In this document: piece by piece, positions 1,234 to 15,764 of the stretch
How positions within the stretch are numbered: position 1 is the stretch's first letter
How the letters are laid out: each line of letters starts with the position of its first letter
IMG/VR virus record: IMGVR_UViG_3300027832_000011
Span: 56,018-76,017 of that record
Reading direction: 5' to 3' (one strand)
DNA length: 20,000 nucleotides
DNA from: an uncultured virus (IMG/VR IMGVR_UViG_3300027832_000011)
Taxonomy: Duplodnaviria > Heunggongvirae > Uroviricota > Caudoviricetes
Notes under the pieces: generated by a model
What the model was told of the DNA's origin: nothing
The model's input: only the letters and a program-made list of their open reading frames with translations
The model's database searches: none
Program-made: the position numbers and the translations under genes

Positions 1234-2911
1234 CATCATTCGTTTTAAAAGTAGTCTTGTCATTAACGCCATTACCAAAAGGGTCTCTAGGTGCTTTTTC
1301 ATAATATAACCCATACTCAGAAAAAGGGTCTTGTCTTTTTAATTGAAAATTAAATAAATCATGCATGTAGTGAACACCATTAACAAATGGGTAGTCTAAG
1401 GTATTTTCATTAATACCGTTAACGCCAATATCTAGTAAATCCCGCCAAATAATTCTCCCATCCTCTAAATCCTCAGCGTAATCTGGTATACCAACAACAG
1501 AAGAATCACCTTGTTCTACATAACTTGAGAAATCTCTAATTTTAATCAAGTGGTGAGGTTTATACATATAACCCTCATATCTTTTACCTAAATCTAAAAC
1601 ATAATTAGTAATACTGTTAACAACACTACCACCAGCATCTCTATTATTAGTGTTGAACCTGTGCCAAACATCGGCTAAGATATTCTCCCTAACCTCATAC
1701 TTATTATATTCCACCAAATCACCAATGAAATCATCATTACCAATCATAACATTACCCTCTAAATGTTCATGTGTAATGAGGCTATTTGATATTCGTCTAA
1801 TATCTGGAATTTTTAAATCCAAATCAATACCACTAATATTCGCCATTGATAAACCAGATTTTACCTTAGAGAAAGTATTTTCAGAATCAGTCTTTATGAA
1901 AGTTAGGTAAACCTCTGATAATGGTCTACCTAAATTATCAAGTAAACCATTAACATCAATATCCTCATTCATGTTAAATTGCGATATAATATCATTGTAA
2001 ATATTTTTACTAAATGCTAAAGGGTATATTTCATAATCATTATTACCAATAACGAAAGTGTTCTTAGTTTTAATTTTACTAAAAACTCTATAGTAATATT
2101 TTGACTCTTGACCACCAAAAACCCTAACCATTCTACTATCATTAGAAATGGTAACTAAATTTGGGTTTAAATCAATTATAAAATAATATTCACTATCATC
2201 ACCATTAGATAAACCCAAACTAAGAACATTATAATCATCATTAAAATTAATTTGGGGTAAACCCTTAATCCTAACTGTTGAACCAACGGATAAACCATGC
2301 TTTACTGGGACCCCAAATATAGTCATTTCCCTACCATTAAAAATGATAGTATCTTTATATATAATCTTTAAACCACCATTAGTTAAATCACTATCAATGG
2401 TACTTTTAGGGTATACAATCGTTATATCCCAATTTTTAACACCATTATTAGGTGTTAAAGTGAATAAATCTCTAGATGGTGACATATCGTAAAATAAGCA
2501 ATTACTAACTTTAGAAATATCTGGGTCGTAATAACCAAACCAACCATGTTTTTCAACTAAGTGGGTTTGAATTGACTCCCCATATTTTAAATCCTCTTCC
2601 TCATCTAAATCAATACCATTAGGTGGGTAACTCCTATCTCTAAATATAGGACCCATAAATGTTGCGTAACTATTTTCACCAGTAACATTAAACAAAGCGT
2701 TAGTGAAGATAGGGTTAATCGTAAAATTGAAACGATATAATTTAGACTTTTGTCTCTCCTTATTGAATACATCCCCAACATTAACAATTTCATTTATATC
2801 ACCAATAGGTAATAACCTACTAGTACTCTTAAAAGGTACTTTTATGAAAGAATCAATATTAACCCTATTAACACCCTTACCATTATTTAAAATTATTTTC
2901 ACATTGTCCAT
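1223..2911 (-). CDS. Hypothetical protein, likely baseplate/tail structural (562 aa)
   Basis: Long ORF coupled to the upstream gene by a TAATG overlap at 2909-2913. Function is inferred from operon context only. Confidence 0.75.
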   Translation of the reverse strand: MDNVKIILNNGKGVNRVNIDSFIKVPFKSTSRLLPIGDINEIVNVGDVFNKERQKSKLYRFNFTINPIFTNALFNVTGENSYATFMGPIFRDRSYPPNGIDLDEEEDLKYGESIQTHLVEKHGWFGYYDPDISKVSNCLFYDMSPSRDLFTLTPNNGVKNWDITIVYPKSTIDSDLTNGGLKIIYKDTIIFNGREMTIFGVPVKHGLSVGSTVRIKGLPQINFNDDYNVLSLGLSNGDDSEYYFIIDLNPNLVTISNDSRMVRVFGGQESKYYYRVFSKIKTKNTFVIGNNDYEIYPLAFSKNIYNDIISQFNMNEDIDVNGLLDNLGRPLSEVYLTFIKTDSENTFSKVKSGLSMANISGIDLDLKIPDIRRISNSLITHEHLEGNVMIGNDDFIGDLVEYNKYEVRENILADVWHRFNTNNRDAGGSVVNSITNYVLDLGKRYEGYMYKPHHLIKIRDFSSYVEQGDSSVVGIPDYAEDLEDGRIIWRDLLDIGVNGINENTLDYPFVNGVHYMHDLFNFQLKRQDPFSEYGLYYEKAPRDPFGNGVNDKTTFKTNDDEC

Positions 2912-5900
2912 TAGTAAATTGTTATTTCATTTGATTCACACCCATCCCTATGACTCACAAGGTATGCTTTATCACCAGCGGTTAGACCATTCGGTGGGAA
3001 TGAATATACCCGTAGGAAAGAATTAGTGTCAAAATTATATACAATACCTATCGTAAACTCATAGAGTTTAACACTTGAACCGACCTTAAATACATCAAAT
3101 TTCTCGCCATCCCCAAACCCATTAAGTTGCCCAGCACGGGGTGAGGTAATACTGATTCTCCTCTTATCTATAATAAAATTTGATTGTTCATTAGTTGCTA
3201 TAGTTTCAAAATTAGATTCATCGAAATTTAACCCATTACCACCATACACACCATACCCACTAACCGAATTTGGTATGAATTTGTGGAAAGCATGTCCCAT
3301 TCCGCTTAGAACCCCACCAGGAAAATAACTATATCTGAAATAATAATCTATATGTTGATTACTTAAATCATGTACAGAATTTTGAGCATTTAAAAAGTTA
3401 GCTAATGCATTACTTGACATAATAGAAATTCGAGATGGTAGAGTTATTACCTTAATCTCATAAAACCTAATTTTTAAAGCTGTTGGCATTACTATAGCTC
3501 CAGAACCAGTAACCACTTGACCAAATAAATCTGTTATAGTGATAGAAAAGGTGCCACTAGGTAACGAAAGATGGTTCATTAATGTTGATGAATATGTTTC
3601 AGTACCACCGCTTTCATTCACAAAAGTTGGTCCAACAGTTTGTACTAAATATGGTGGTATCCCACCGTTTATTCGAATATTAATTTCGGCATCATTATCA
3701 TAATCAGGTGCGTAACATTCTGGCGATGTAAATGTTATGGTGGTCTCTAATTTAGGCGGTTTTAATATCTCAAAAACACTGTTATAAGTCAAAGGTACGT
3801 TACTAGTATCAACGACTGTTAAGGTATATGTACCACTCGCCAACCCAGTAAATGTGAAATTGGGTATTGGGTTATTAACTGTTTGTGTAGTTGGGTTATT
3901 TGTTGGGCCCACTATTGTTACAAAATAATTACCATTACCACCAATAATCGAACTTAAAGTTAATGTACCATCACTACTTAATGGGGTTCTAGTGGTATTT
4001 ACCACGATTTCAACCTTAATTGGTTTTGGTTGGCTAACTATAAACGTCTTTTTAACAACACTACCATTATCATCGGTAACGCTAACGGTGTACTCACCAG
4101 CGGTTAAATTAGATACCCCCTCAGTAATCTCACCATTACTCCAAAGATATGTGAATGGTTCGAAACCATCGATTATTGAGATATTTATACTACCATCATT
4201 ACCACCTAAATACGTTACATCACTAATCACACCCTCAATTATAAACTCATCTTCCACTACTTGTTCACAACTAGTAAAATATTTAGCGTTCATCTTATCA
4301 ATAGCGCTATTATTTGGTGCTGTACCAAAATACATATAGAACGAATTACCCCTAGCTTGCTTTACAGTTCTTTTACCAAAATCTCTATAATTTTTATAAT
4401 GTGAACCATTAAAACCACTATTTAAACCTGTAGTCGTTAAAGATAAAGTATTTGAATTTGAGACAATTAAACAATCCCTAACAAATTGGTTATCAATGTC
4501 TTCATCACCAATACTATTATTTTTAGAAACACCATTAGGTTCATCATTTCTATCTTCATCTAGACCAACACCAATCTCACATAACCTTCTTATATTACTC
4601 ATCTGATTATCACTAGCATTAAGCTTAGTACATGAAAATGTAAATAACAGGCCTCTATTGGGATTACTATCAGCCAATTTAGATACATTAGGTTCATCTG
4701 TATTAGTTAATGGTGGTATCTTATATGATGTAGGTAGTAAGTATTCGTGAAAACTAGGTTTACCTTCCCAATCACATTTATTAATAGCACCTAAGCAAGT
4801 TATATCGGTTGCGTATAAAATGTAATCTCTATCCTTATCATATGGGGCGTAAAATAATTCACCCTTAAAACTTTTAATGAACCCCTTATATATTTTTTCA
4901 CTAGCGTGGTTTTTTAAATTACCATTAATTAAAGTGTCAACAATGTAACTATCCTCACTTACATCAACACTACAGAATTTCTCATTATTCTTCTTTTTTT
5001 TATATTTTAATAAAAATGAAAATAATGTACCGTTAACCCAATCATTATAAAAATCAAACTCAAAAATATTTAAAGCTGAAGCAAGTTGAATTTTATAACA
5101 CTCTTCTAAAGCATCTTTTGATGTACTTTTAGTACCATCAGGTTTTGCACGACTACCGCTACAACCTGGTGCGTACTTAACACCATCACAATCTAAAGCT
5201 ACACACCTAACACGCCCAAACAACCTAACTCTAGTGATAAGACTAAAAGCTCTGTTTGCTAACTCTAAAATCATTAAAATAATACCCACTATTAAACATA
5301 TTATTAAGAATAATGGGTTGAAATCACCATCTAACTTATTAAATGGGAATGGGTTTTTATTACCAACACAATCATCAACATCTTTAACCCCAATCATTCT
5401 TCTGTTATCAGCACAACCACCTGAACAAGCAGATTGTATTCTAGTTATATGGTTTCTAACTGTGTATATTTTATTCCAAGATAAATCAGTAAAGTTATTA
5501 CTTTTAGTGTCACTATTAAAATTATAATCAATATCATCAGCAGTTTTTGGGTTATGAGGGACTAAAAACTTAGCTCTACTTCTAATTCTACCTTCGCCAC
5601 CAGTATCATCCATACCGATTTTAAATCTAACTTTAGCCCTAGTTGGTACACCTTTATTGGTGTCCTCACTAGGAATAAGTTCACCAAATTCATCGGTAAC
5701 AACATAATCTAAGTTCATAGGTATTTGGTAAGCCCAAGCACCGAACTCGTCAATTAAATTACCACCAGAAACATCAAATTTTTGAGTATTACCATCAATA
5801 TCTTTCCTAATCATATTAATAGTACCCGAAGCGGATACCGTCTCACATAATTTACCCAAATCTTTTCTAGGTCTACAATTTTTATTAAGTGAATTTTTCT

Positions 5901-6666
5901 CATTATCACCGAAAATACTACCGACAAATATTGCTGATGGTACTAAATTATAATTTAAATCCATATCAATTCTAGTTATACCAATCTCACCCTCTTCACC
6001 CCAAAATGGTATTATATTGACACCTGCTTTTTGGTTTTTAAGTTGAGTTAGGGAATTTAGATTTTTACTACCTAGAAACACGGTAGATGATTTGAATAAA
6101 TTTTCTGGGTTACCTTGTTCGATAAAATCATAAGGTTTTTGTGAGAATTGACCAATATCCGATAAATCAACATCAATATTTATAATGTGATTACCAACTG
6201 GTACACCAAATAACATAAAATCACCAGCGTTATTAGTTGTTGTCGTGAATTTATAGTACTTGTCATACACCTCAAAAATAATATTATTATCAAGTACCTC
6301 TCTCTTTTTTGGGAACGTACCTACTGGTGTGTGACAATCACCTTGATAGTCTTTTGGTAGAAGATTATACCTAACACCATCAAAATCTTCATCATTAGCC
6401 GTGTTAAATGGATATAAACTTTTAACCTCTTCCGAGTCAGAATCATTTAAAGGTATAAATAAGGATACTTTAGCGTTAGGTACACCCAAACCATTGTTTA
6501 CGATAACTCTACCAACTACAACACCGTAATCAGAGTTAAAACGCCTATAAACATCTTCTTGGGATAACTTTAATGATAATATCTCAAGAAAATCGAAATC
6601 TTGTTCCAAATTAACCTTTAGATATTTATCAACACCTACATCCGTTTTTATCCTAATATTACTCAT
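2911..6666 (-). CDS. Large putative virion protein (~1251 aa): N-terminal carboxypeptidase-regulatory-like beta-sandwich, central hydrophobic helix and Cys-rich region, about 3 SprB-like repeats, unique C-terminus
   Basis: VVVGRVIVNNGLGVPNAKVSLF...TTTTNNAGDFMLFGVPVGNHII fits a CarboxypepD_reg-like pattern. PLFLIICLIVGIILMILELAN is hydrophobic. DVTYLGGNDGSINISIIDGFEPFTYLWSNG...NLTAGEYTVSVTDDNG fits an SprB repeat. Start is probably MSNIRIK at 6666 (track start 6675). Confidence 0.7.
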   Translation of the reverse strand: MSNIRIKTDVGVDKYLKVNLEQDFDFLEILSLKLSQEDVYRRFNSDYGVVVGRVIVNNGLGVPNAKVSLFIPLNDSDSEEVKSLYPFNTANDEDFDGVRYNLLPKDYQGDCHTPVGTFPKKREVLDNNIIFEVYDKYYKFTTTTNNAGDFMLFGVPVGNHIINIDVDLSDIGQFSQKPYDFIEQGNPENLFKSSTVFLGSKNLNSLTQLKNQKAGVNIIPFWGEEGEIGITRIDMDLNYNLVPSAIFVGSIFGDNEKNSLNKNCRPRKDLGKLCETVSASGTINMIRKDIDGNTQKFDVSGGNLIDEFGAWAYQIPMNLDYVVTDEFGELIPSEDTNKGVPTRAKVRFKIGMDDTGGEGRIRSRAKFLVPHNPKTADDIDYNFNSDTKSNNFTDLSWNKIYTVRNHITRIQSACSGGCADNRRMIGVKDVDDCVGNKNPFPFNKLDGDFNPLFLIICLIVGIILMILELANRAFSLITRVRLFGRVRCVALDCDGVKYAPGCSGSRAKPDGTKSTSKDALEECYKIQLASALNIFEFDFYNDWVNGTLFSFLLKYKKKKNNEKFCSVDVSEDSYIVDTLINGNLKNHASEKIYKGFIKSFKGELFYAPYDKDRDYILYATDITCLGAINKCDWEGKPSFHEYLLPTSYKIPPLTNTDEPNVSKLADSNPNRGLLFTFSCTKLNASDNQMSNIRRLCEIGVGLDEDRNDEPNGVSKNNSIGDEDIDNQFVRDCLIVSNSNTLSLTTTGLNSGFNGSHYKNYRDFGKRTVKQARGNSFYMYFGTAPNNSAIDKMNAKYFTSCEQVVEDEFIIEGVISDVTYLGGNDGSINISIIDGFEPFTYLWSNGEITEGVSNLTAGEYTVSVTDDNGSVVKKTFIVSQPKPIKVEIVVNTTRTPLSSDGTLTLSSIIGGNGNYFVTIVGPTNNPTTQTVNNPIPNFTFTGLASGTYTLTVVDTSNVPLTYNSVFEILKPPKLETTITFTSPECYAPDYDNDAEINIRINGGIPPYLVQTVGPTFVNESGGTETYSSTLMNHLSLPSGTFSITITDLFGQVVTGSGAIVMPTALKIRFYEIKVITLPSRISIMSSNALANFLNAQNSVHDLSNQHIDYYFRYSYFPGGVLSGMGHAFHKFIPNSVSGYGVYGGNGLNFDESNFETIATNEQSNFIIDKRRISITSPRAGQLNGFGDGEKFDVFKVGSSVKLYEFTIGIVYNFDTNSFLRVYSFPPNGLTAGDKAYLVSHRDGCESNEITIY
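3485..4245 (-). repeat. About three degenerate SprB-like (Ig-like) protein repeats; boundaries approximate
   Basis: Recurring pattern DG.I.I....GG..PY......L..G.YT.TVTD: NDGSINISIIDGFEPF..LTAGEYTVSVTDDNG; SDGTLTLSSIIGGNGNY..LASGTYTLTVVD; NDAEINIRINGGIPPY..LPSGTFSITITDLFG. Confidence 0.7.
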
Positions 6667-6988
6667 CGTCATCAACCATTTGATAATCCATTAACTCGTA
6701 GTTATCTACATTGTCAATATCAATATCCTCAATTTCATTATCATCATTTAAATTTTCTTTATCTTTATTTTTATTAATAATTTTATATAAAAAAATCATG
6801 GAAGGTATGATGGTGTTATTCTTATTAAGAATAAAACTATTAAATATAAAATAGACCCCAATTAACCAAAAAAATGGTGTTAATATAGTTAGCAAAAATA
6901 AGGTAACAATAAAAACAATAACTCTACTTAATATACTTTCTTTTTCACCATCCAATGGTGAATCCACATTACTTTTACAACAACTCAT
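6659..6988 (-). CDS. Small hypothetical membrane protein (109 aa)
   Basis: MSCCKS N-terminus, long hydrophobic stretch VIVFIVTLFLLTILTPFFWLIGVYFIF, acidic C-terminal tail. Stop overlaps the next start (ATGAGTAA). Confidence 0.75.
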   Translation of the reverse strand: MSCCKSNVDSPLDGEKESILSRVIVFIVTLFLLTILTPFFWLIGVYFIFNSFILNKNNTIIPSMIFLYKIINKNKDKENLNDDNEIEDIDIDNVDNYELMDYQMVDDDE

Positions 6989-11843: not shown

Positions 11844-12833
11844 TTAAAAATCACCATCTTCACTGTCAAAAGTGATAGACTTACTAGAATCAGTGTTGGT
11901 TACACCAGCTTTTTGGTATTCGCCAACTCTCTTCTCGAAGAAGTTGGTTTTCCCTGGTAGGTTAATCATATCCATAAATGGAAATGGGTTAGTAACGTTG
12001 AATTCCTTACCGCAATTTAATGAAACTAATAACCTATCACTAACAAATTCAATATATTGTGACATCATATCTGAATTCATACCAATTAACTTTACTGGTA
12101 ATGCATCTAATATGAACTCTTTTTCAATTTCAACAGCATCTCTAACTATTTCAATAATCCTTTCCTTTGGAACCTTATTAACCACATGATGATTATGTAA
12201 ATGAACCGCAAAATCAGTATGCATACCCTCATCACGAGAAATTAACTCATTGGAGAATGTTAGGCCTGGCATTAAACCACGTTTCTTTAACCAATAAATT
12301 GAACAAAAAGCACCTGAAAAGAAAATACCCTCCACAACAGCAAAGGCAATCAATCTTTCAGCAAAAGAATCCGATTCAATCCATTTTAAAGCCCAATCAG
12401 CCTTTTTCTTAACACAACTTAGTGTTTCTATCGCATTGAATAGTTTATGTCTCTCAGCCTCTTCTTTAACGTATGTATCGATAAGTAATGAATATGTTTC
12501 ACTGTGTATGTTCTCCATCATAATTTGGAAACCATAAAAGAACTTAGCTTCCGTGTATTGTACCTCACTAAGGAAGTTTTCAGCTAAATTTTCATTTACT
12601 ATACCATCAGATGCTGCGAAGAACGCTAAAATATGTTTAATGAAATGTTTCTCATTATCATTTAACTTTTCACTCCAATCCCTTAGGTCTTGTTGTAAAT
12701 CAATCTCCTCAGCAGTCCAAATACTAGCTTGCTGTTGTTTATAAAGTTTCCAAATGTCATCATGTTCAATTGGGAATAAAACGAATCTATTTTGATTTTC
12801 AGTTAGAATCGGTTCTTTTTTTAACTCACTCAT
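11844..12833 (-). CDS. nrdB: Ribonucleoside-diphosphate reductase class Ia, beta subunit
   Basis: [30 protein letters not shown] (iron ligands and radical Tyr), [28 protein letters not shown]. Confidence 0.98.
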
Positions 12834-12850
12834 TTTTTTTTCTTTTTTTT

Positions 12851-13315
12851 TTAACTTTCTTTAATTTTCTTACTAGCATCCATAATCAACTTAACCCTAT
12901 CTAAATCCCTAGAATTTTTATCAAAAGTATTTTGTAAGAACGTTTTAGATTCTTGCTCAACAATCTCAATTTGAACTCTTGAATTATCAAAAATGCAATC
13001 ACTCAACACAATACCATCCTTACCAAATCTAGATTTAAGTATTGCTAAATTAGCGTGACCACTATCTTTTTGCTCATTACTTCTAGCAACTGAAACTATG
13101 AAATGCCCAATTTGCGCTTTCTTAATCGAACCACCCATTTGGTCTGACTCAACAACCTCAGCTTTAATTGAACTATTATGCGTATAAATATCATTAGCGT
13201 AAAACATATGTGTATCATCTACTGTTATATCGATAGTGTCTTCATAACCAATTAACTCAATACTTTCAATCTCATCTAAATCAAAATCTTCTAAATTTAA
13301 TTTATGTTCTTCCAT
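12851..13315 (-). CDS. dnaB: Split-intein C-fragment (47 aa) fused to the C-terminal 107 aa of the DnaB/gp41-like helicase
   Basis: [21 protein letters not shown] is intein block F/G, followed by helicase motif H4-like [15 protein letters not shown] and LAILKSRFG (arginine finger region). Confidence 0.92.
13175..13315 (-). mobile_element. Split intein IntC half
   Basis: Own ATG, ends His-Asn followed by Ser+1; 15 Asp/Glu and 1 Lys in 47 aa. Confidence 0.92.
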
Positions 13316-13361
13316 ACATACTCTAACCCTTTATTATTAACCATTTTAAAACATTATTAAA

Positions 13362-15764
13362 TTATTTTTTAATTAGTAACTTAACACCAATACTTAAACC
13401 ACTTTCAATTGAACTCAAAACCCCATCTGATGTTGGGAAGAAATGTTTTTTACTCACTTTAATTTCCTTACCAGATTTTAATTTTATCTTATACACTGGT
13501 TGCTTTTGAATTGGGAAAATATGTGATACCATTTTGTAACCATCTTTAGTTAAAATTTTATCATTTAACACCACATCTTTTATCTCAATAGTACCTTTAC
13601 CCTCAATATCCACCTTAGTGTCAAGTGCAACACAACGATTACCTTGTACTGCTGTCCATCCAGCCATATCAAACTCATTTAACATGGTTTCAAATTCTCT
13701 CATTACTCTACCTTCACCAACATTAGTATCATCTACTTTTCTTGATGGTTCAACACAGTCGATATAGTCAATTAAAATCATGTCTGGTCTAAAACCGTTA
13801 GCTATTAATTTCCTAACCATTAGTTTTATCTTAGCTATCGTGATATTATCACTATTCATTTTTAACAACCTAAGTTCACCACCAGCTTCTAAATTACTAA
13901 TAACGGTTTTCTTTACTAATTCTTTATGATTAGATAACTCATTTAACTCTATATTGGTCCAACAAGCGTAGTGTTTACGTTGTATGACCTTCTCATTATC
14001 TTCAAAAAATATTTGTAAAACGTTAAAACCTTGATTTAGAGCACTGTTAGCTATCTTGGTAATCATAGTTGTGTTATGTGTAACAATAAAATCGTCAGTA
14101 ACGAATAGTTGTTCCACATTATCAACCATTATACAAGTGGCTTCTTCTTTATGTGAATATTCAATCGATTTGATAAATTTACCGCTATTATAAATACCCC
14201 CAGTAATGAGAAGTTCATTTTTTCTAGCTAATTTAAATGGTTTTATTTTATTTTCACTTGGGAATGATATGATTAATACATAAGCTTCCCAACCAACCTT
14301 CTTAACACCATCGTAACTGTAGTTAGGTGTTCCGATAGATAATTCACAAAAACCACCTAAAGATAATACTAACCATTTAACATCATCAATTAATTTTTTT
14401 GAAACGCTAACGTACTCGATACTACCATTTTTATTCACATTACCATCAGCATCTAACAAACCTCTAAGTATTTCTAACCTATTAGTTTTTGAATTATGAA
14501 GATAACTAATAGGTATGAATTTATTATTAGATTTTTTATTATATAAACTTAACGATTTTAATTTATCGGTAATACCATGAATAGAAACATGAGATAAACA
14601 TTCTTTAACTAAGACATCATCTTTATCAATATCTAAACATTTTTCCTTTATGGATATAACACCACACATTAACCTACTAACCTCATTAACAACTTCTAAA
14701 TCCTTACTAGTAAACGTAGACGACTTCATATTACCATCACGTAGCATTACACCTAAAACATATGGGTCAATTGGTAATTCTTGTTCGTTAAACTCAATTG
14801 GTTCAACCATTGGGATTTTAAAATTCAAATCTTTTCCAGTCCCGAAAGTTAAATTATTGATTAGTTCAGAAGTTTTAACTACTTTAAATGAGTTATCAAC
14901 TTTACAAGATGAGTGATTACGTTGGTCATTAGAATTGACCGCCCATAAATGTTCCTCATCACAAAAAGTACTGGTAGTATCATTAAAAGTAATTTTGAAT
15001 ATTGGTCGAATACCTTGTGGGTAGACACCAATAACATTTGTCTCCTTACCATTTCTACCAAATACTTTATCACCAACATTAATAGACCCCATTAACTTAA
15101 ACCCTTCTGGTGTGTAAATTTTATTTGAATTAGGTAAAGCTTTACCAACACCAAAAGGAGCTAATATAATCCCTAGTTCAGTTTTAGCTAAACCACCATT
15201 CATGTATTCATCAAAACCTTTAATACCAGTCGCTATTGGGTTTCTAAAGTCGTCAGCTAGAACGCCATCAATATCATTATCTAATTGAATACTAAAATCT
15301 TTATTTTCCCCAACTGAAAGTGCTTTCTTTAGTATAACCTCACACTCATCATACTCCTCATAATCACCTCTTTCTAGTATTACGTTTATTTCAGAAACAG
15401 ATTTTTTCAAAGCTTGCTGCTTACAGAATTTCATAGCTATTTCTTGAACCTTGAAGCTATCATTATAGTTAACATCTTTGATTTTATTTAACTGACCTAT
15501 TGCGAAGTCTCTCTGTATTGTATTACTTAATCTTTCTTTCAATCTAAACTCTAAACTTTCAAAGTCTGGTATAACTTGATGAGTATTATAAGCATTTTTA
15601 ATCTCAACAGCTATTAGTTTTAGGTATTCATCACCAAAAAAGTTAACATCTATAATGTCTAATATATCGTTAGCGAATTTTTTATCAGTTATTAGTTGAG
15701 CTATCAGCCTTAACTGATAGTCCTCACCTAAAAAACCTAGATTATCTTTTTCTACTCTAGACAT
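13362..15764 (-). CDS. dnaB: DnaB/gp41-like replicative helicase, N-terminal part, containing a class 3 intein and ending in a split-intein N-fragment
   Basis: IATGIKGFDEYMNGGLAKTELGIILAPFGVGK|T Walker A (interrupted), QIFFED (H1a), MILIDYID (H2), WTAVQGNR (H3), then the Cys-initiated IntN. Confidence 0.95.
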   Translation of the reverse strand: MSRVEKDNLGFLGEDYQLRLIAQLITDKKFANDILDIIDVNFFGDEYLKLIAVEIKNAYNTHQVIPDFESLEFRLKERLSNTIQRDFAIGQLNKIKDVNYNDSFKVQEIAMKFCKQQALKKSVSEINVILERGDYEEYDECEVILKKALSVGENKDFSIQLDNDIDGVLADDFRNPIATGIKGFDEYMNGGLAKTELGIILAPFGVGKALPNSNKIYTPEGFKLMGSINVGDKVFGRNGKETNVIGVYPQGIRPIFKITFNDTTSTFCDEEHLWAVNSNDQRNHSSCKVDNSFKVVKTSELINNLTFGTGKDLNFKIPMVEPIEFNEQELPIDPYVLGVMLRDGNMKSSTFTSKDLEVVNEVSRLMCGVISIKEKCLDIDKDDVLVKECLSHVSIHGITDKLKSLSLYNKKSNNKFIPISYLHNSKTNRLEILRGLLDADGNVNKNGSIEYVSVSKKLIDDVKWLVLSLGGFCELSIGTPNYSYDGVKKVGWEAYVLIISFPSENKIKPFKLARKNELLITGGIYNSGKFIKSIEYSHKEEATCIMVDNVEQLFVTDDFIVTHNTTMITKIANSALNQGFNVLQIFFEDNEKVIQRKHYACWTNIELNELSNHKELVKKTVISNLEAGGELRLLKMNSDNITIAKIKLMVRKLIANGFRPDMILIDYIDCVEPSRKVDDTNVGEGRVMREFETMLNEFDMAGWTAVQGNRCVALDTKVDIEGKGTIEIKDVVLNDKILTKDGYKMVSHIFPIQKQPVYKIKLKSGKEIKVSKKHFFPTSDGVLSSIESGLSIGVKLLIKK
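13365..13634 (-). mobile_element. Split intein IntN half (90 aa)
   Basis: CVALDTKV block A directly after QGNR; VYKIKLKSGKEIKVSKKHFF block B with His; ends SGLSIGVKLLIKK-stop with no block F/G. Confidence 0.92.
14073..15140 (-). mobile_element. Class 3 intein (356 aa) with LAGLIDADG homing-endonuclease domain, inserted in helicase Walker A
   Basis: Starts with Ala (GVGK|ALPNS) and ends VTHN|T. WCT triplet: block B HLW, block F ATCIMV, block G THN. Endonuclease motifs YVLGVMLRDG and LRGLLDADG, plus LIDDVKWLVLSLG. Confidence 0.93.

Follow-up and report, generated by a model that had tools for sequence, protein, structure and literature searches.

A candidate naturally split class 1 intein in the replicative helicase of an uncultured freshwater T4-like phage and its metagenomic relatives

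Introduction

Split inteins in the gp41/DnaB-type helicases of phages have been in print since 2009, and their layout is well known. Here we describe a locus of this kind in a stretch of 20,000 nucleotides (nt), referred to below as the window, which forms the last 20 kb of the 76-kb virus record IMGVR_UViG_3300027832_000011 of IMG/VR, and in which a replicative helicase appears to be encoded by two genes whose products would be joined through a split intein. The nearest described counterpart is gp41-8 (Dassa et al. 2009, PMC2677866), a class 1 intein with Cys1 and Ser+1 that was found in a DnaB/gp41-like helicase from a freshwater metagenome, is inserted at a Q-x-N-R|S site, and consists of a basic N-terminal half (IntN) of 89 amino acids (aa) and an acidic C-terminal half (IntC) of 45 aa, with a putative endonuclease gene between them. 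The insertion sites of gp41-1 to gp41-7 differ from that of gp41-8 (PMC2677866). Among these, gp41-1 shows the same charge polarity as gp41-8, and gp41-7 has a layout that Dassa et al. saw once, which is described as having no endonuclease gene between the halves and a hairpin upstream of the C-part (PMC2677866). Both gp41-1 and the fast, orthogonal gp41-8 are standard tools of protein engineering (PMC11168065, PMC7090010).

Cellular DnaB helicases carry inteins at comparable positions: the P-loop contains site b, and motif H4, which binds DNA, contains sites a and c. In some Actinobacteria and Cyanobacteria the P-loop and H4 sites (b and a) are occupied together (Novikova et al. 2016, PMC4760082). 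Class 3 inteins have no nucleophile at position 1 and are marked by a Trp-Cys-Thr (WCT) motif distributed over blocks B, F and G; the DnaB1 inteins Mch and Msm belong to this class (Beyer et al. 2020, PMC7664689).

The locus in the window resembles gp41-8 in its type of host helicase, its freshwater metagenomic origin, its Q-x-N-R|S site, its class 1 features with Cys1 and Ser+1, and its combination of a basic IntN with an acidic IntC, the halves being 90 and 47 aa long. It differs from gp41-8 in the absence of an endonuclease gene between the halves and in the presence of an additional class 3 intein in the P-loop of the same helicase. In its solved structure (6qaz), gp41-1 provides the best match and the same position of the break, whereas its insertion site (TRSGY; PMC11168065) is different and its IntC is 10 residues shorter at the N-terminus. 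The absence of an intervening endonuclease gene is shared with gp41-7, whose upstream hairpin has no predicted equivalent in the window. Finally, the joint occupation of the P-loop and H4 by inteins, the class 3 character of the P-loop intein and the resemblance of IntC to the Ssp DnaB intein all recall cellular DnaB, from which the window differs in that its H4 intein is split into two genes and its host protein, a gp41-like helicase of a phage, is only a distant relative of the cellular ones.

Results and Discussion

A helicase gene divided within motif H4

The helicase is divided between two open reading frames (ORFs) on the minus strand. The first encodes 800 aa and ends with a TAA at 13362-13364, 90 aa past the Cys1 of a terminal IntN (CVALDT...LLIKK); the second (12851-13315, 154 aa) begins with IntC (MEEHK...IYTHN) and continues into the helicase extein SSIKAE.... 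Sequence comparison indicates, with a probability that we put at roughly 0.88, that motif H4 of this DnaB/gp41-type helicase is interrupted at Q-x-N-R|S by a class 1 intein that is naturally split; the phage is uncultured, T4-like and from freshwater. The ORF coordinates, the stop, the 46-nt gap and the sequences given for this locus in the initial annotation all agree with the sequence and the ORF list.

The two ORFs, 46 nt apart, are in different frames, and the gap is closed in both of them. Upstream of its ATG the frame of the second ORF remains open for 5 codons only (159 aa of open frame in total), and three consecutive TAA codons stand in this frame within the gap, whereas a shift out of the IntN frame at the A-run would lead to a stop after five codons. 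Fusion of the two ORFs by read-through or frameshifting is therefore impossible, since the stops within the gap close both frames. A purine-rich AAAGGGTTAGAG stretch ends 6 nt 5' of the ATG of the second ORF.

The boundaries of both inteins in the window are fixed to the residue by an empty-site relative from IMG/VR (L008), which possesses one uninterrupted helicase of 461 aa reading ...APFGVGK|TTMITKIANSA... at the first junction and ...WTAVQGNR|SSIKSEVVESDQ... at the second (QGNR|SSIKSE). This closest host gene thus contains no intein at all, and the identities of its sequence to the three extein parts are given in Table 1. The order of genes is also the same, with a 177-aa ORF upstream of the helicase and NrdB downstream. 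Once both inteins are removed, the exteins of the window rebuild a continuous conserved helicase of 208+146+107 = 461 aa; the product length proposed earlier for this locus thus equals that of the uninterrupted L008 protein, and the junction sequence agrees as well. Residues 20-406 of the L008 helicase align with the T4-type structures 8dtp and 8due, annotated as 'DnaB-like replicative helicase' (E-value 7e-8), and in this alignment to T4-type gp41 the intein site falls in WTAAQ....

Class and catalytic residues of the split intein

Pfam matches on the 800-aa ORF comprise DnaB_C, LAGLIDADG_3, Hom_end_hint and Intein_splicing. The homology to known split inteins proposed in the initial annotation was borne out for both halves by alignment with the experimentally characterised and solved gp41-1 intein (PDB 6qaz), which IntN matches with an E-value of 3.7e-13 and IntC with 6e-4; IntC also matches the Ssp DnaB intein (1mi8, E 1e-3). 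The last residues of the IntN of the window and of gp41-1 align with each other, which places the ORF break at the canonical split site, in the loop where endonucleases are inserted.

The sequence features of a class 1 intein are all present, namely a Cys at position 1, the S-x-x-H of block B, blocks F and G, a terminal His-Asn and Ser+1. Cys1 directly follows ...QGNR, and the block B residues S61-K-K-H64 align with SEEH of gp41-1. In an alignment of 21 sequences (the window and its IMG/VR relatives), C1, S61 and H64 of IntN, as well as D29, H36, H46 and N47 of IntC, are invariant (21/21). The net charges, +7 for the basic IntN and -14 for the acidic IntC, have the polarity that Dassa et al. 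describe for gp41-1 and gp41-8 (PMC2677866).

A particular resemblance to gp41-8 had also been suggested, and here the outcome depends on the property compared. The native exteins are SQLNR/SAVEE for gp41-8 and TRSGY on the N side for gp41-1 (PMC11168065, Supplementary Table 1). With VQGNR/SSIKA, the window shares the Q-x-N-R|S junction of gp41-8, as compared over five native residues per side, so that the likeness stands for the insertion site. The sequence SQLNR is one which we take to be the H4 consensus of cellular DnaB. The likeness to gp41-8 does not extend to sequence closeness: when residues are counted by hand against Fig. S1 (PMC2677866), 42 of 88 IntN positions and 21 of 45 IntC positions are identical to gp41-8, only ~47% per half. 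For gp41-1, HMMER alignments give ~35/87 (IntN) and 18/40 (IntC), or ~40-45%. Because the former value is hardly above the latter, the intein of the window is a divergent member at the gp41-8 site and not a near copy of gp41-8.

A class 3 intein in the P-loop

The first intein of the 800-aa ORF (ALPNS...VTHN) lies between GVGK and T of the P-loop, starting with Ala and ending in THN|T, after which the helicase resumes with TTMITK. It contains a LAGLIDADG_3 domain (Pfam, E 3.5e-8), and its best match in PDB is gp41-1_WCT (6riz, E 1.2e-9), ahead of wild-type gp41-1; in this alignment its EEHLW and TCIMV segments align with the engineered Trp and Cys of 6riz. Further matches were obtained to the class 3 DnaB inteins 6rix/6riy and 6bs8. 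With Ala at position 1 and with the Trp, Cys and Thr of the motif all present, this intein shows the hallmarks of class 3. Among the 35 IMG/VR loci that bear the split intein, it was found in eight, with 43-68% identity, and it is absent from L008.

Table 1. Parts of the divided helicase locus, in positions of the window
Feature	Coordinates	Strand	Evidence
N-terminal helicase gene: extein/class 3 intein/extein/IntN, 800 aa	13362..15764	minus	ORF list; Pfam; L008 mapping
Extein part 1, aa 1-208, ends in P-loop ...APFGVGK	15141..15764	minus	90% identical to L008 1-208
Intein 1, 356 aa, class 3 (WCT), LAGLIDADG, P-loop (DnaB site b)	14073..15140	minus	PDB and Pfam matches
Extein part 2, aa 565-710, 146 aa, ends ...WTAVQGNR (motif H4)	13635..14072	minus	81% identical to L008
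IntN, 90 aa, net charge +7, Cys1, block B S-K-K-H	13365..13634	minus	PDB 6qaz match
Intergenic gap, 46 nt, purine-rich AAAGGGTTAGAG stretch	13316..13361	minus	sequence; independent contig
IntC, 47 aa, net charge -14, block F D and H, terminal His-Asn	13175..13315	minus	PDB 6qaz, 1mi8
Extein part 3, 107 aa (SSIKAE...) and stop codon, Ser+1 nucleophile	12851..13174	minus	87% identical to L008

Conservation of the break in contigs and homologous proteins

The break was checked in assembled Logan contigs from four sequencing runs, used in place of raw reads. Three of the runs, which possibly represent the source sample, each contain a contig of 6287 bases identical to the window over 12600-14100. 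The fourth, independent run (X4) comes from another study with another habitat label; its contig of 187 bases covers 13282-13468, spanning the start of IntC, the gap, the stop and the end of IntN, with 0 differences and 0 indels. The TAA at 13362-13364 and the gap, on which the proposal of two separate genes depends, are thus unchanged in the contigs, including that of the independent run.

We further searched for proteins homologous to each half. With the C-half as the query, 423 proteins between 84 and 270 aa long were matched at E ≤ 1e-3, and the best 120 of the 423 were inspected. Among these 120, 118 are stand-alone proteins that begin with Met and have THN|S within their first 75 residues; all 118 possess Ser+1, and IntC is exactly 47 aa long in 87 of them. 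The other two are intein-free fragments reading ...QGNRSSIKSE.... On the N side, extein part 2 together with IntN served as the query and matched 888 proteins at E ≤ 1e-5. Among the best 120 of these 888, at least 69 end 89-97 aa after Cys1, four contain a contiguous intein and 33 have no intein at the site, while 14 were left unclassified by the pattern, most of them having an IntN-like tail at their end. The conservation of the split in relatives is stronger evidence than the contigs that the split is genuine.

The intergenic gap

A regulatory hairpin or terminator within the gap was considered as a candidate element and rejected: no hairpin is predicted in the 46 nt, their fold is no better than those of shuffled sequences (z-score +0.53), and the gap holds no terminator-like site. 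The single such site is located within the sequence that codes for IntN, and its occurrence is no more than chance would give (1 found vs 0.8 expected). No endonuclease ORF or remnant was detected in the gap by tblastn (best E 0.23), and no homologue of the Vsr-like endonuclease is present in the whole 76-kb record. A free-standing endonuclease gene between the halves, the criterion of a 'fractured gene', is therefore absent from the window.

Short matches to the two sides of the break were observed in contigs of runs X1 and X3, which come from another organism. They cover 27 bases (13270-13296) and 18 bases (13357-13374) and lie ~0.9 kb apart, as compared with 60 nt in the window, an arrangement that may reflect a co-occurring relative bearing an insert. 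They were rejected as proof that the sample also holds a variant with an endonuclease, because the matches are too short to count.

Metagenomic relatives and the origin of the split

A scan of IMG/VR yielded 44 distinct loci. One of them (L003) is identical to the window, and four others are likewise split with a short gap, which measures 63 nt in L004, L006 and L007 and is replaced by a 4-nt overlap in L014. A split with an insert of 1.07-1.26 kb was found in 18 loci. We inspected 13 of these inserts, and every one contains an ORF of 348-410 aa on the helicase strand; all five of the insert ORFs that were scanned match DUF559 and REase_MTES_1575. These ORFs are the counterpart of the Vsr-like endonucleases that Dassa et al. 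described as a family (PMC2677866). Two loci have endonuclease remnants (E 1e-13 to 1e-19) in gaps of 239 nt (L037) and 314 nt (L015), and represent a stage between the layout with an endonuclease and that with a short gap. In 11 loci the intein is contiguous in one frame, nine of which can be read to the helicase stop and two of which run off the locus. Finally, the site is free of an intein in seven loci, and one locus is cut by the end of its contig.

The two remnants preserve different parts of the endonuclease: in L037 (3756-4000) the C-terminal nuclease core is kept, with a frameshift and stops, and in L015 (338-660) an N-terminal piece is kept. Inverted repeats were seen by eye next to some of the intact endonuclease genes. 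For example, in L016 (2734-2800) the repeat CCCCCATCTAA...TTAGATGGGGG lies just 5' of the endonuclease start codon and overlaps the start. Similar repeats occur in L019, L033, L013 and L044, and they recall the translational hairpins of Dassa et al. (PMC2677866). Among the contiguous forms, a mini-intein on a 4.3-kb contig (L026, ~3590-3595) has Tyr in place of Cys1 (QGNR|YVSLDT), which reflects either a dead intein or a sequencing error.

The relatives hold every stage of the gene-breaking model of 2009, from the empty site through the contiguous intein, the split with an endonuclease and the decayed insert to the short-gap form. Most likely, the short-gap layout is the end state of a 'fractured gene' after loss of the Vsr-like endonuclease gene. 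This order of events is suggested by the existence of the intermediates with remnants.

When the 35 loci with both halves are compared with the window, IntC has a median identity of 84% and IntN one of 66%, as against 40-49% for the three parts of the extein. In all 35 loci the identity of IntC is higher than that of any extein part, and in 30 of them this holds for IntN as well. Such an intein, more conserved than its exteins, is consistent with the horizontal spread of a mobile element among diverged helicases; the alternative explanation for its high identity is a strong constraint on the intein itself.

Split helicases of this arrangement are very common in metagenomes, where they have hundreds of relatives, and we found no later accounts of this split-helicase family in the open-access literature searched. 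What the window adds is a divergent natural pair (~47% identical to gp41-8) at a site of proven fast splicing, for which the native exteins are known. The large metagenomic family around it, with an almost invariant C-intein core, could be mined for orthogonal split inteins. The knowledge of how split inteins work is unchanged by this locus; its value comes from how large and complete the surrounding natural series is, and from the possible use of a new split-intein pair.

Proposed splicing pathway

As the genes lie 46 nt apart without a terminator between them, they are probably co-transcribed. By analogy with homologous systems, the C-half would be translated from its own ATG behind the purine-rich AAAGGGTTAGAG stretch, and the basic IntN (90 aa, +7) would pair with the acidic IntC (47 aa, -14) to form one HINT domain. 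In the usual four-step reaction of class 1 inteins, formation of a thioester at Cys1 would be followed by transfer to Ser+1, after which Asn47 of IntC would cyclise and a peptide bond would be formed in ...AVQGNR-SSIKAE.... The class 3 intein would splice separately and in cis, through the block F Cys of its WCT motif, and would thereby restore GVGK-T. The 461-aa helicase would exist only after both splicing events.

It is conceivable, if quite improbable, that the two unlike splicing events gate the helicase and tie the start of replication to the concentrations of the halves and to redox conditions, in which case the short-gap form would be kept for this role and would be something other than a mere selfish relic.

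Weighing of the alternatives

Several points weigh against a functional, naturally split intein as the explanation of this locus. Splicing here is deduced from homology to other inteins. The sequence was checked on assembled contigs, and the source sample may account for three of the four runs. Near-duplicates are frequent among the IMG/VR loci, so that locus counts are not counts of independent lineages. In this lineage the endonuclease may have been lost or may never have been present, and the gap has no recognisable remnant. Finally, the record is ~22% complete, which leaves room for a further helicase in the rest of the genome.

The last point bears on an improbable scenario in which the locus is a decaying, non-functional helicase whose halves no longer splice and another helicase serves replication. 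A second helicase is possible in the missing part of the genome, and the L026 allele with Tyr for Cys1, if taken as a dead copy, would show that decay occurs in the family. This scenario is countered by the catalytic residues of both inteins, which are all intact, by the exteins, which are 81-90% identical to those of the uninterrupted relative and have neither frameshifts nor internal stops, and by the strong conservation of the intein halves described above (median 84% for IntC and 66% for IntN vs 40-49% for the exteins).

Very improbable is a helicase of two chains that are held together non-covalently by the intein fragments and never ligated. Split intein halves bind tightly, and the complementary charges of +7 and -14 would suffice for association. 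However, association alone needs neither the nucleophiles nor the terminal Asn, which are strictly conserved, and the homologues gp41-1 and gp41-8 ligate efficiently (PMC11168065, PMC7090010). Moreover, an intein of 137 aa left in motif H4 would probably block function, judging from the role of H4 (PMC4760082).

The proposal that the phage really has a contiguous cis mini-intein, with the stop and the gap arising as errors of assembly or sequencing, is already largely refuted: it could draw on the 11 IMG/VR loci with contiguous mini-inteins at this site and on the inspection of contigs in place of raw reads, but the stop, gap and start are reproduced exactly in the independent X4 contig, the gap is not a single indel but comprises 46 nt of unrelated sequence in which both frames meet stops, the cis forms have a linker of 4-8 residues instead, relatives are split at the same point with other gaps (63 nt, a 4-nt overlap or 1.07-1.26 kb), and stand-alone halves predominate among the database matches listed.

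Genomic context

The description of the locus in the initial annotation as being seen in full phage genomic context was overstated, as the record is a 76-kb fragment estimated by CheckV to be 22% complete. The runs that contain the window are labelled as freshwater metagenome. Genes neighbouring the helicase encode a gp32-like protein, a RecA-family protein (Pfam RecA; UvsX by its T4 name), a 5'-3' exonuclease, NrdB, NrdA and gp25, which together form a replication module of the T4-like type. A search of the 76-kb record for a second helicase was negative. Isolated phages are all distant from this virus: blastn gave no nucleotide match of the locus to an isolated phage, and a protein search with extein part 1 gave helicase identities of at most ~27% among isolated phages.

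Downstream of gp25, an ORF of 1254 aa (2911-6675, minus strand) has weak matches to SprB-repeat and carboxypeptidase-regulatory-like domains, neither of which reaches the Pfam cut-offs, and probably encodes a protein of the baseplate or of a fibre.

A second split intein, of an atypical kind, is present in the same record outside the window (L002, which corresponds to G000:C1:34832-38047, minus strand). Its upstream ORF (2008-2643 of L002) reads through a P-loop ending ...GGK into an IntN of 29 aa (CVRANT...PDELK) that is followed by a stop. After a gap of 27 nt (1981-2007), the next ORF starts from 1980 with an IntC of 124 aa ending in SHN|T, beyond which it encodes a Rad50/SbcC/gp46-like ATPase that has a zinc-hook-like motif, CPTC. 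Among solved structures, this IntC is best matched by the atypical split intein VidaL (6vgv, E 3e-8), with the alignment starting from VidaL residue 24.

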